Source: Candidatus Micrarchaeota archaeon
Lineage (GTDB): Archaea; B1Sed10-29; JAJRYS01
Length of the DNA: 64,000 nucleotides
Direction: 5' to 3'
Assembly (NCBI GenBank): GCA_964643685.1
Contig: CAZXTN010000001.1
Coordinates: forward strand, 118,737 to 182,736
Shown here piece by piece: positions 8,594-48,068 of the stretch; the first letter of the stretch is position 1; the number at the start of each line of letters is the position of its first letter. Position numbers and translations under genes: made by a program. Below the pieces are notes generated by a model that saw nothing but the letters and a program-made list of their open reading frames with translations, was not told the DNA's origin and searched no databases.

Positions 8594-8642
8594 AAAAAAA
8601 CACAAACTAATTCTTTAAAAAAACAGAAAAGAACAAGCTAAT

Positions 8643-8654
8643 TCTTTATAAACT
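8643..8654 (+). promoter_or_regulatory. archaeal BRE/TATA-like box (TCTTTATAAAC) ~28 nt upstream of tRNA-Ser
   Basis: Matches recurring motif (C/G)TTTATAAA also seen at 11365, 27913, 35014, 45537. Confidence 0.5.
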
Positions 8655-8682: not shown

Positions 8683-8810
8683 GCAGAGGTGGCAGAGTGG
8701 TAATGCGCTGGTTCACTTTCGCTCGGCGAAATGAACGACTGAACGGAGTGAGGCGAGTCTTGAAAACCAGTGTCCTCCGGGGCGCTAGGGTTCAAATCCC
8801 TACCTCTGCG
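8683..8810 (+). tRNA. tRNA-Ser (anticodon TGA) with a 46-nt intron (8713-8758) at a non-canonical position (31/32 or 32/33); class II long variable arm; T-loop TTCAAAT; CCA not encoded
   Basis: Acceptor GCAGAGG/CCTCTGC+G, anticodon stem CTGGT/ACCAG, spliced loop CTTGAAA, T-stem TAGGG/CCCTA parsed by hand. Confidence 0.7.
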
Positions 8811-8849
8811 CTTTACTTTTATAATTTTACAGATTAAGTTGGTTACAAA

Positions 8850-8921
8850 ATGAAATCAATCGCAAATAAAAGACATGAAGGCTCAAACTTTCATTTTTTA
8901 TCTGTGAAAATGGATGGTTAA
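8850..8921 (+). CDS. conserved small ORF (23 aa, MKSIANKRHEGSNFHFLSVKMDG), paralogous to 35725-35802; may alternatively be a structured RNA motif
   Basis: First 17 nt identical in both copies; differences are mostly synonymous/conservative; stop lies 5 nt before the Nudix ATG at 8926. Confidence 0.4.
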   Translation: MKSIANKRHEGSNFHFLSVKMDG

Positions 8922-9381
8922 AAAAATGAAATACGAGTTGTTCAGAACATTTTTGAAAATCTGCAGGCACGAGTTTCCATTAGTAGGCGCAACTGCAATA
9001 ATAACAAACAAGAAAAAAGAAGTGCTGTTAAGTAGAAGGAAAAAAAGCGGGTTGTTTTATCCTGGTTATTGGAACCTCCCAGGGGGCTTGATTGAAATAG
9101 GAGAAACAGCAACAAAAGCCCTTAAAAGAGAAGTAAAAGAAGAGATAGGAGTAGACATAAAAGTGAAAAAATACACTGGAAGGTATTATGAAAAAAATTT
9201 AATTAGAAACAAGAAAATATATTCTACAATTACCCTTCCTTTCTACGCAGAGATAATAAGAGGAGTTCCAAAACCGCTTGACGAAACAATTGACGTGAAA
9301 TGGTTCAAACCAAGCGAAATAAGAAAAATGAAATTAGCTTACAATCATAAGGAAATATTAAAAGACGAAAAAATAATTTAA
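8914..9381 (+). CDS. Nudix hydrolase
   Basis: Nudix box GGLIEIGETATKALKREVKEEIG (GX5EX7REUXEEXGU); start could be ATG 8914 or 8926. Confidence 0.8.
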   Translation: MVKKMKYELFRTFLKICRHEFPLVGATAIITNKKKEVLLSRRKKSGLFYPGYWNLPGGLIEIGETATKALKREVKEEIGVDIKVKKYTGRYYEKNLIRNKKIYSTITLPFYAEIIRGVPKPLDETIDVKWFKPSEIRKMKLAYNHKEILKDEKII

Positions 9382-33788: not shown

Positions 33789-35012
33789 ATGAGTAAAATG
33801 AAAGAGTTAATCAGAAAACACGCCTTAAAAAACGCATTAGAACATGAAGGAAAAGCAGCACCAGGCGCAGTGATAAACAGGGTCCTAGGAGAAAACCCAG
33901 AGCTAAAAAAAGACATGAAAACACTAGGACAAGCAGTAAAACAAGAAATAGAAAAAGTAAACCAAATGACTCTAAAAGAAATAAAACAAGAGCTTGAACA
34001 AAAACACCCTGAACTGCTTGAAAAAAAAGACGAAGAAAGAAGAGACTTACCTGAACTGCCAGGCGACACTTCAAAAGTAGTCATGAGAATGGCTCCAAAC
34101 CCAAACGGTCCACTGCACTTAGGACACGCAAGACAAGCTATACTCAACTGGTTCTACGTAAAAAAATACAATGGAAAATACATACTAAGATTCGACGACA
34201 CTGACCCAAAAAACAAAGTGCCACTAAAAGAAGCATATGACTGGATAATAGAAGACCTAAAATGGCTAGGCATAAAACCCGACGAAATACTTTACGCCTC
34301 AGACAGGCTAGATCTTTACTACAAATACGCTGAAAAATTAATTGAAATGGAAAAAGCATACATCTGCACGTGCCCACCTGAAAAATTCAGAGAATTAAAA
34401 AACAAAGGAGAACCATGCCAATGCAGGAACCTGCCAAAAGAAGAGCAGATGAAAAGATGGAAAAAAATGTTCACAGAATACAAAGAAGGAGAAGCAGTAT
34501 ACAGAGTAAAAACAGACTTGAAAGACCCAAACCCTGCTCTGCGCGACTGGCCTGGATTTAGAATAATTGAAAACAACAAACACCCACGCAACAAAAACGC
34601 AAGAGTATGGCCATTGCTTAACTTCAACTCATCAATAGACGACCACCTCACAGGAGTCACGCATATAATAAGAGGAAGAGACCTTGACTTCACAGAACAC
34701 CAGCAAAAATACTTATACAATCACTTCAACTGGAAATACCCAGAAACAATAGTTACAGGAAAACTAAACCTAGAAGGAGCAATACTAAGCTCGTCAGAAA
34801 TAAAAAAAGGAATACAAGAAGGAAAATACACAGGCTGGGACGACAAACGACTAGGAACGCTAAAAGCATTGAGAAAAAAAGGACTAAAACCAGAAGCAAT
34901 AAAACAACTAATCTGGGACCTTGGAGTCAGAAAAAACAACGCCACAGTAACATGGGCAAACATAGAAGCAGCTGCAAAAAAAGCAGAAAAAAACAAGACA
35001 TACAAAGAATAA
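33789..35012 (+). CDS. glutamyl-tRNA synthetase-like catalytic core with N-terminal GatB/YqeY-like domain; no anticodon-binding domain
   Basis: HIGH motif PNGPLHLGHA, class I Rossmann core of archaeal/eukaryal GluRS/GlnRS type; only 407 aa. Confidence 0.7.
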   Translation: MSKMKELIRKHALKNALEHEGKAAPGAVINRVLGENPELKKDMKTLGQAVKQEIEKVNQMTLKEIKQELEQKHPELLEKKDEERRDLPELPGDTSKVVMRMAPNPNGPLHLGHARQAILNWFYVKKYNGKYILRFDDTDPKNKVPLKEAYDWIIEDLKWLGIKPDEILYASDRLDLYYKYAEKLIEMEKAYICTCPPEKFRELKNKGEPCQCRNLPKEEQMKRWKKMFTEYKEGEAVYRVKTDLKDPNPALRDWPGFRIIENNKHPRNKNARVWPLLNFNSSIDDHLTGVTHIIRGRDLDFTEHQQKYLYNHFNWKYPETIVTGKLNLEGAILSSSEIKKGIQEGKYTGWDDKRLGTLKALRKKGLKPEAIKQLIWDLGVRKNNATVTWANIEAAAKKAEKNKTYKE

Positions 35013-35116: not shown

Positions 35117-35485
35117 ATGGCAAGCCCATACGTGAAATTCAAAGTACCTAAAGAAATAGCAGAACAAACATACCAAGCAGTTGAAAAAGCAAGAGACACA
35201 GGAAAAATCAAAAAAGGAGTAAACGAAGCAACAAAAGCAGTTGAAAGAGCAACAGCAAAACTAGTTGTGATAGCAGAAGACGTAGCACCACCAGAAATAG
35301 TTGCATACCTGCCAATACTCTGCGAAGAAAAGAAAATACCCTACACATTCATCCCAACAAAAAAAGAACTAGGAAAAGCAGCAGGAATAAAAGTAGGAAC
35401 AACAGCAATAGCAATAATAGAAGAAGGAAGCGCAAAACAACTTGTTGAAAACATTGCAAAAAAAGTCGAAGAACTGAAAAAATAA
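35117..35485 (+). CDS. rpl7ae: ribosomal protein L7Ae (also C/D and H/ACA sRNP component)
   Basis: L7Ae family; GGAGG SD 7 nt upstream of ATG 35117. Confidence 0.9.
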
Positions 35486-35500
35486 GGGGATGAATAAAAA

Positions 35501-35710
35501 ATGGCAGACGACGCAGTACCAGCACAAGTAATGGAAATAATAGGAAAAACCGGCGTACACGGCGAAATATGGCAAGTCATGGTAAAAATACTAGAAGGAA
35601 GAGACAAGGGGAGAATCATAAGAAGAAACGTAAAAGGACCAGTAAGAAAAGACGACTTGCTAATGCTAATAGACACAGAAACAGAAGCAAAACCAATAAG
35701 AGGACGCTAA
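35501..35710 (+). CDS. rps28e: ribosomal protein S28e
   Basis: S28e family (AEVIEIIGRTGMHGEV-like). Confidence 0.9.
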
Positions 35711-35724
35711 ATAGGTGAAAATAA

Positions 35725-35802
35725 ATGAAATCAATCGCAAAAGAAGGATATGAAAGCTCAAGATTTCATTTTCTTACTATAAAGAAAGGTGAAAGCAAAT
35801 GA
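35725..35802 (+). CDS. conserved small ORF (25 aa, MKSIAKEGYESSRFHFLTIKKGESK), paralogue of 8850-8921; stop overlaps rpl24e ATG
   Basis: Second copy of the AATGAAATCAATCGCAAA...TTTCATTTT element. Confidence 0.4.
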   Translation: MKSIAKEGYESSRFHFLTIKKGESK

Positions 35803-35981
35803 AATGTTCATTTTGTAAACAAGAAATACCAAAAGGAAGCGGAAAACTCTACGTGCTGAAAGACGGCACTAGATATTACTTCTGCTCCAGCAAATGCCAA
35901 AACAATATGCTTAAACTCAAAAGAAAACCAAGAAAAGTAAAATGGATAACAAAAAAGAAAAAAGAGGAGAAAAAGCAATGA
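35799..35981 (+). CDS. rpl24e: ribosomal protein L24e
   Basis: L24e zinc ribbon CSFCKQ...CSSKC. Confidence 0.9.
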   Translation: MKCSFCKQEIPKGSGKLYVLKDGTRYYFCSSKCQNNMLKLKRKPRKVKWITKKKKEEKKQ

Positions 35982-47666: not shown

Positions 47667-47920
47667 AGTCCCGTAGTCTAGTGGCCAAGGATTCTGGCCT
47701 TTGGAACGTTTCAACGCCTTCAAAAAAAGGAGTTAAGCGTGGAAACAGCCAGAGACGGCGGTTCGAAACAAAGGGTTACACCCTCTTGACACCTGTCATT
47801 GGGATGCGCTTGCGCTTACCCAATTGTCAATGATAAGGGAAGGGGGGTCAGGAGGACCCTGAAACTGGGGGGGAAACCGCAGGTGTCCCCCGCGGTTCGG
47901 CGAAACTCCGCCCGGGACTA
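47667..47920 (+). tRNA. tRNA-Gln (anticodon TTG) with two introns: canonical 37/38 (47705-47746, 42 nt) and T-loop 59/60 (47768-47906, 139 nt, GC-rich)
   Basis: Acceptor AGTCCCG/CGGGACT+A, D-stem GTCT/GGAT, anticodon stem CTGGC/GCCAG loop CTTTGGA, T-stem GGCGG/CCGCC with spliced T-loop TTCGAAT. Confidence 0.65.
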
Positions 47921-48038
47921 TAACCCATCACTTATTATAAAATCACTAACAGATTTACAAAAAGACCACTAAGCGAAGCGCATGTGGTCTGCGGGGAGAT
48001 CAGAAACTCCCTAGAAATGAGAGGGGCAGCAAGCCCCT

Positions 48039-48068
48039 CGCGTTTCGGAGAAACTCCGCCCGGGACTA
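48039..48068 (+). repeat. downstream near-exact copy of tRNA-Gln 3' module (CGCGTTTCGGAGAAACTCCGCCCGGGACTA)
   Basis: Last 20 nt identical to 47901-47920; 28/30 identical overall with 47891-47920. Confidence 0.8.

Follow-up and report, generated by a model that had tools for sequence, protein, structure and literature searches.

Two copies of a short element precede rpl24e and a Nudix gene

The window, i.e. the whole stretch of 64,000 nucleotides analyzed here, is A-rich (44% A, ~36% G+C), carries archaeal core genes and has its closest named relatives among Micrarchaeota/DPANN metagenome bins. Two small open reading frames (ORFs) with similar nucleotide sequences lie within it, one (copy 2) between rps28e and rpl24e and the other (copy 1) between an intron-containing tRNA gene and a Nudix gene. 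Pfam labels in the S28e-L24e region come from a second, independent assembly of this organism (L001/L143), in which the element is identical. The genes and ORFs at the two loci are:

33789-35012: GluRS
35117-35485: L7Ae
35501-35710: S28e (rps28e), PF01200
35725-35802, + strand: small ORF of copy 2, 25 codons, MKSIAKEGYESSRFHFLTIKKGESK, between rps28e and rpl24e
35799-35981: L24e (rpl24e), PF01246
3' of L24e: adenylate kinase, then aIF5B (order from the ORF list)
8683-8810, + strand: tRNA with an intron (Rfam tRNA, 45.6 bits)
8850-8921, + strand: small ORF of copy 1, 23 codons, MKSIANKRHEGSNFHFLSVKMDG, with TAA at 8919-8921
8926: ATG of the Nudix gene, whose 3' neighbors are archease and RtcB

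The small ORF of copy 2 opens with an ATG at 35725 and closes with a TGA at 35800-35802, so that it has an ATGA in common with the rpl24e start codon (35799-35801). Copy 1 begins 39 nt 3' of the tRNA and ends differently, with a TAA located 4 nt before the Nudix ATG. The two copies have ~50 nt in common at 84-86% identity, including the perfect 19-mer AAATGAAATCAATCGCAAA, with 43 of 50 aligned bases identical (blastn E = 2.5e-7); a profile built from the two sequences (nhmmer) recovered each of them at 52 bits, the next best score in the 64-kb window being below 7 bits. This similarity goes far beyond chance. The 64-kb window contains two copies and no more, and none was found in ~6 kb of extra flank from the same organism, added by exact-protein look-ups.

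The earlier note on this DNA had placed a second motif copy between rps28e and rpl24e and had described its TGA as overlapping the rpl24e ATG, and both statements agree with the coordinates (35799-35802 for the overlap) and with the blastn result. The note had also spoken of a conserved sORF/RNA motif; of this description, two homologous copies in one genome stand, whereas conservation does not, given that close relatives are free of the motif at both orthologous sites and that no RNA or protein family matches it. The ATGA geometry alone is weak evidence. Because rpl24e starts with ATGAAA in all relatives, any upstream frame in register -1 must stop there.

Several other features of the window were recorded in passing. 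The + strand is strongly purine-loaded (44% A), so that many long spurious ORFs lie opposite real genes and ORF lists of this genome need care. The tRNA at 8683-8810, probably a tRNA-Ser (anticodon UGA, long variable arm), was seen neither by ARAGORN, which reported nothing in the window, nor by the whole-window Rfam scan at gathering score, and came up in a permissive Rfam scan; the orthologous tRNA of the relative L092 is free of an intron at that site and has an insert in the T-loop region instead, so that the intron position varies between close relatives. Upstream of this tRNA, the promoter-like CTAATTCTTTA is doubled (window 8607-8648, + strand, copies 31 nt apart) and is single in the relatives L092, L094 and L095; this is a further short local duplication around an insert, and it suggests that a mutational process of this kind recurs between genes here. 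If read from the ATG at 35942, the adenylate kinase ORF has 40 nt in common with the 3' end of rpl24e (window 35942-35981, + strand); the overlap persists with the alternative start at 35960, and both arrangements occur among relatives. Elsewhere in this A/T-rich genome, two adjacent G+C-rich segments of ~90 nt each (window 47840-47920 and 47975-48068, + strand) have in common a 34-nt 3' end, CCC(C/T)CGCG(G/T)TTCGG(C/A)GAAACTCCGCCCGGGACTA, at 91% identity; neither gave an Rfam match (E up to 1) or an ARAGORN call, and the two may represent structured RNA genes that are unusual or split.

Host start regions are duplicated on both sides of a common core

At each locus, a core homologous between the copies is enclosed by two versions of the start region of the downstream gene:

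35713-35731, + strand: upstream direct repeat of copy 2, R(up2), AGGTGAAAATAAATGAAAT, a duplicate of the rpl24e Shine-Dalgarno (SD) sequence and ATGAAAT, with the SD and start codon of the small ORF
35732-35786, + strand: core of copy 2, 55 nt, homologous to 8857-8914 (global alignment of the cores)
35787-35805, + strand: downstream direct repeat of copy 2, R(down2), AGGTGAAAGCAAATGAAAT, the working rpl24e SD and start codon (ATG 35799)
8840-8856, + strand: upstream direct repeat of copy 1, R(up1), TGGTTACAAAATGAAAT, supplying the SD and ATG of the copy 1 small ORF
8857-8914, + strand: core of copy 1, 58 nt, containing the hairpin at 8870-8899
8915-8932, + strand: downstream direct repeat of copy 1, R(down1), TGGTTAAAAAAATGAAAT, the working Nudix start region

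The repeats are 19 nt long at locus 2, where R(up2) and 35787-35805 are identical at 17 of 19 positions, and 17-18 nt long at locus 1. They are locus-specific, with AGGTGA at locus 2 and TGGTTA at locus 1. The sequence AGGTGAAANNAAATGAAAT flanks copy 2 on either side without a mismatch and has only one other occurrence in the window with up to 2 mismatches (0.11 expected). When the 1843 ATG-anchored sites of the window were ranked by similarity to the start region of each small ORF, the best match was in both cases the start region of the immediately downstream gene: for R(up1), this was the Nudix start region at 8926, and at locus 2 the top rank was tied with one other gene start. By a rough list of start sites in the window, about five real genes start with ATGAAA, and only rpl24e and the Nudix gene start with ATGAAAT. 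The rpl24e start at 35799 is confirmed by relatives, and the Nudix protein of the relative L092 begins with MKHELIK, in agreement with the ATG at 8926.

This duplication of the start region at both loci is the most informative feature of the element; it lies partly outside 35725-35802 and was overlooked in the earlier note. That the SD and ATGAAAT of the small ORF duplicate the start of the downstream gene at both loci points to insertion with target duplication rather than to an evolved leader peptide.

The element is absent from close relatives

The S28e-L24e and Nudix operons of the closest relatives in public assemblies were located by exact-protein look-ups. At the S28e-L24e site, the element is absent from three distinct lineages, L118, L002-L004 and L005/L006. 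In L118 (L7Ae 88% identical), the spacer is 24 nt long and reads TAA-aaaaaacaagac-AGGTGAAATCAAATGAAATG, so that rpl24e has the single, undisrupted start region AGGTGAAATCAAATGAAATG; in L002-L004 (L7Ae 86% identical) and L005/L006 (L7Ae 83% identical), the spacers, of ~55 nt and ~50 nt, respectively, are motif-free. At the tRNA-Ser-Nudix site, the element is absent from one relative lineage, L092/L093, in which S10 is 96% identical and the order S10, tRNA-Ser, Nudix, archease, RtcB is the same as in the window; the tRNA-Nudix spacer of this lineage is 97 nt long, A/C-rich and unrelated. The relatives make L24e and Nudix without the element, which is therefore dispensable for the expression of these genes and lineage-specific. 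Derivation of the core from an ancestral S28e-L24e spacer was rejected, there being no significant similarity to the spacers of the relatives (p = 0.18-0.66). Identity to the window genome at third codon (synonymous) positions is 0.73-0.82 for the S28e-L24e relatives and 0.83-0.86 for L092, and the identity between copy 1 and copy 2 of the element, 0.84, is about the same.

A separate observation concerns the region 5' of tRNA-Ser in L092 (10405-10480; also in L093), where a perfect 12-nt direct repeat, AATGCAGAGGTG (the 5' end of the tRNA), flanks a 51-nt insert that contains the hairpin TGAAAAAAA-CAAAC-TTTTTTTCA. The architecture, repeat-insert-repeat, is that of copies 1 and 2; homology of the core to this 51-nt insert was considered and is not convincing.

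Searches of family libraries and sequence collections were uniformly negative. No Rfam family reached its gathering score anywhere in the window, and with E up to 10 the best scores at both loci were 14-21 bits, against gathering scores of 50-80 (E > 2); neither peptide matched Pfam or NCBIfam. Comparison with phages and plasmids by blastn gave partial matches only (E >= 0.07). Exact-pattern scans returned 80 loci of 85 matched stretches in genome contigs, all bacterial or unrelated and none a true copy on re-check with nhmmer, 18 matches in metagenome contigs and 20 in viral contigs, all by chance; as these three scans relied on exact patterns, which are insensitive, and covered collections without the contig of this genome itself, the absence of the element elsewhere in public collections is weak evidence.

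The small ORFs show no sign of protein-level constraint

The peptides encoded by copies 1 and 2 are 52% identical (11 of 23 residues differ). Between the small ORFs there are 18 nucleotide differences, which are spread over codon positions 1, 2 and 3 as 7, 4 and 7 and of which only ~3 are synonymous; the perfectly conserved blocks, of 19 nt and 9 nt, include third codon positions. Judged from this pattern, the peptide differences fit neutral change, and no purifying selection is seen. With neither syntenic orthologues nor a profile match, and with differences distributed evenly over codon positions, the two ORFs do not have the properties of a conserved small protein family. When the cores were shuffled, the small-ORF frame stayed open ~13% of the time. 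A nested ORF in another frame was compared as well:

35750-35782, + strand: nested ORF of copy 2, 10 codons, MKAQDFIFLL
8875-8907: counterpart in copy 1, MKAQTFIFYL

Of the 8 differences between the nested ORFs, 3 leave the amino acid unchanged and one replaces a stop codon by another, numbers too small for significance.

Translation of the small ORFs is plausible from their upstream signals. In copy 2, a perfect AGGTGA SD is located 6 nt 5' of the ATG, the same spacing as for rpl24e. In copy 1, the ATG lies ~30 nt 3' of the TATA-like TTTTATAA (8817-8824), and this ORF may be leaderless.

A weak hairpin is common to both copies

An RNAalifold consensus of the two copies contains a common hairpin of 10 base pairs with a 1x1 mismatch and an 8-nt loop, GCUCAAGA in copy 2 and GCUCAAAC in copy 1:

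35745-35774, + strand: hairpin of copy 2, AGGAU-AUGAAA / UUUCAU-UUUCU (RNAalifold consensus and pair counts)
8870-8899: hairpin of copy 1 (RNAalifold, common to both copies)

At the DNA level, the hairpin is the palindrome ATGAAA-N8-TTTCAT, and it is followed by a T-run, TTTTTT in copy 1 and TTTTCTT in copy 2. Six differences between the copies fall in the hairpin: two in the loop, one in the mismatch, one a wobble change, and two that together make a compensatory change of an A-U to a G-C pair. All six keep the base pairing, which hints at some constraint on structure; a shuffle control with two sequences is uninformative (256 of 500 shuffles do as well). The folding energy is weak (-6.9 kcal/mol for copy 2; -5.6 and -6.9 across the copies), and the z-scores for the regional fold are -0.17 and -1.92.

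The segment UUUCAUUUU is predicted to be able to pair with any of three AUGAAA sites. The best predicted fold of copy 1 buries the Nudix AUG (unpaired probability 0.02), and that of copy 2 buries the AUG of the small ORF itself; with a different AUG buried at each locus, the predicted structures are inconsistent.

Three types of known archaeal RNA were considered as candidates and rejected. A C/D box sRNA calls for a C box RUGAUGA and a D box CUGA (plus C'/D'), with guides of ~12 nt; AUGAAAU and AUGAAAG occur at C-like and C'-like spacing, but copy 2 is devoid of UGAUGA and CUGA, and the match to snoR19 scored 21 bits against a threshold of 60. A K-turn or L7Ae-binding leader calls for a 3-nt bulge and then tandem sheared G-A/A-G pairs, with GA on both strands; the loops are GCUCAAGA in copy 2 and GCUCAAAC in copy 1, and copy 1 is without GA on the 3' side. 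A scripted search for BHB introns (h-B3-H4-B3-h') that allowed one mismatch found no motif with an intron length equal to the repeat period (74, 76 nt) and no motif common to both loci.

Independently of the element, the start codon of rpl24e sits within a 7-bp hairpin made by the first codons of the gene, AAAUGAA-AUG-UUCAUUU (window 35796-35814, + strand); this sequence is kept at the same position in L002, L005 and L118, probably because it encodes MKCSFC.

Comparison with known systems

MITE-like elements and other small dispersed repeats, such as the Correia elements of Neisseria and archaeal MITEs, resemble the element in being short, non-coding in origin and repeated at intergenic sites that are unrelated; in being flanked by a duplicated target, with an inverted repeat inside; and in lying beside gene starts, where a change of expression is possible, at sites where close relatives are free of it. 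There are also differences. Only two copies are present here (in 64 kb plus ~6 kb), instead of many copies accompanied by an autonomous relative; no parent insertion sequence is known, and searches of genome, metagenome, viral, phage and plasmid sequences found no true match. As far as the flanking duplication sets the ends of the element, the inverted repeat AAATGAAAT / ATTTCATTT does not coincide with them: its arms, of 9-10 nt, lie inside the duplicated target (left) and 15-20 nt inside the core (right). Target duplications of MITEs are typically 2-10 nt long; flanking duplications are present at both loci here (19 nt, with 17/19 identical, and 17-18 nt), and the 17-19 nt of this element are atypical, far beyond that range.

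Gene pairs with coupled translation offer a second comparison. ATGA overlaps have been shown experimentally to give strict translational coupling in Haloferax (Huber et al. 2019, PMC6728339), and coupling needs an overlap or a gap well below ~20 nt (Huber et al. 2023, PMC10666635). Both junctions have this geometry, the ATGA at 35799-35802 being a 4-nt overlap with rpl24e and the TAA at 8919-8921 leaving a 4-nt gap to the Nudix ATG at 8926, and the SD of the downstream gene is inside the 3' end of the upstream ORF. By analogy with these systems, translational coupling of the small ORF to rpl24e is mechanistically plausible (PMC6728339, PMC10666635). Unlike in the known pairs, the ORF of 23-25 codons on the upstream side is unconserved, derives from a duplicated start site and is not a real gene, and relatives dispense with it.

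Leader peptides of bacterial and archaeal operons are likewise encoded by a short ORF directly 5' of a gene, and here too an inner segment is predicted to be able to pair with the downstream start. In contrast to such leaders, the element is not conserved across species, its peptide is without a regulatory codon pattern, and the predicted alternative structures differ between the copies.

Origin of the element

Two copies of one repeat, start-site duplications on its flanks, and absence from close relatives and from family libraries were seen directly. The explanation that we find best, and in which we have middling confidence, is that we are dealing with a short insert or dispersed repeat specific to this lineage, with a core of 55-58 nt, the mini-ORF being a by-product and not an evolved conserved peptide gene. 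One short sequence would have inserted right after ATGAAAT in both rpl24e and the Nudix gene, with a target of 17-19 nt duplicated each time; a microhomology-driven copy event at AAATGAAAT would be an alternative route to the same arrangement. The downstream repeat would leave the real gene intact, and the upstream repeat would open a frame of 23-25 codons that crosses the core and terminates within, or immediately ahead of, the genuine start region, while the host gene would still be made from its own retained SD and/or by termination-reinitiation. Insertions that silence the host gene, as in the case of rpl24e, would be removed by selection, and only translatable ones would survive; such selection could account for two open frames that both terminate at the start of their host gene. 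We infer that the element arose by insertion and not by loss in the relatives, and that the upstream ORF would be translated from the duplicated start.

Several observations weigh against insertion. The ends of the element cannot be fixed independently from two copies, the target duplication is longer than those of known prokaryotic transposons, and no transposase, source copy or empty-site allele was found. That both events took place exactly after ATGAAAT would call for either sequence-specific targeting or microhomology-driven copying, both of which are hypothetical. The preserved pairing of all six differences in the hairpin region hints at structural constraint, and the apparent restriction of the element to this genome rests on exact-pattern scans of collections without it. 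Moreover, if the relatives form one clade, loss by deletion between the direct repeats is equally parsimonious. An ancient element of this kind, which would predate the split from the sampled relatives and have been deleted there between its flanking repeats, is compatible with the divergence between the copies (16%), which is about that at synonymous sites from the relatives, and with the tendency of direct repeats to favor precise deletion; still, both loci would need to have lost the element in every relative sampled, and we deem this reading very unlikely. In any case, the loss scenario leaves the nature of the element unchanged.

The remaining alternatives assign a function to the element. 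As a functional upstream ORF or leader peptide, it would be translated at locus 2 by means of its own SD and at locus 1 as a leaderless frame, and translation of rpl24e and Nudix would depend on ribosomes that terminate at or next to their starts or that melt UUUCAUUUU, a segment predicted to be able to pair with the downstream AUG region. The perfect AGGTGA of copy 2, with its rpl24e-like spacing 6 nt from the ATG, is consistent with this possibility, as are the ATGA overlap, a geometry that gives strict coupling in Haloferax (PMC6728339), the 4-nt gap at copy 1, within the range of coupling (PMC10666635), the openness of both frames, and the predicted fold of copy 1, in which an anti-start inside the small ORF buries the Nudix AUG (unpaired probability 0.02). 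Against this, the relatives make L24e and Nudix in the absence of the element, and both downstream genes retain an SD-like sequence of their own; an open frame has a chance expectation of 13%, the overlap follows automatically from the ATGAAA start of rpl24e, the peptide is not conserved (52% identity, no third-position bias), and the predicted folds differ between the loci. On balance, a functional upstream ORF appears unlikely. We give somewhat less credence still to a cis-acting RNA, in which the hairpin AUGAAR-loop-UUUCAU and the U-run would act as an attenuator or terminator, or to a small RNA of ~50 nt transcribed at locus 1 from the TATA-like promoter at 8817-8824. Archaeal transcription termination uses oligo-T, and a T-run follows the hairpin in both copies (TTTTTT in copy 1, TTTTCTT in copy 2); the hairpin itself is present in both, and none of the differences breaks a pair (one change is compensatory and one a wobble); the perfect blocks of 19 and 9 nt, third positions included, resemble constraint on the nucleotide level more than on the protein level. 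The folding energies (-5.6 and -6.9 kcal/mol) and regional z-scores (-0.17 and -1.92) are weak, however, two sequences have no statistical power (256/500 shuffles do as well), neither an Rfam match nor C/D boxes, a K-turn or a BHB motif was found, and the relatives are devoid of the element. The same palindrome, ATGAAA-N8-TTTCAT, together with a third half-site, ATGAAAT, could at the DNA level be an operator that binds a transcription factor just 3' of the promoter and co-regulates the two genes, and indeed both copies have the 6-8-6 palindrome and an extra direct half-site 25 nt upstream. Nevertheless, we consider an operator extremely improbable: the sites number only two, one of them inside an operon that shows no evident promoter; duplication of the start codon accounts in part for the ATGAAA; there is no known candidate regulator; and relatives are devoid of the element.

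A more far-reaching version of the insertion scenario, to which we assign only a slim chance, is that the core is an undescribed, tiny, non-autonomous mobile element of DPANN archaea that targets gene starts reading AAATGAAAT, duplicates the 17-19 bp initiation region, and installs an upstream ORF along with the anti-start UUUCAUUUU, which would result in translational coupling or masking of the start codon of the host gene.

The element does not reveal a conserved archaeal regulator of rpl24e, and its importance would be greater only if many more start-site-targeting copies exist in this genome or its relatives. If the reading as a lineage-specific short insert holds, an insertion that duplicates the start site would create an upstream ORF at once and spare an essential ribosomal-protein gene, and would be a route to de novo small ORFs and new translational control.
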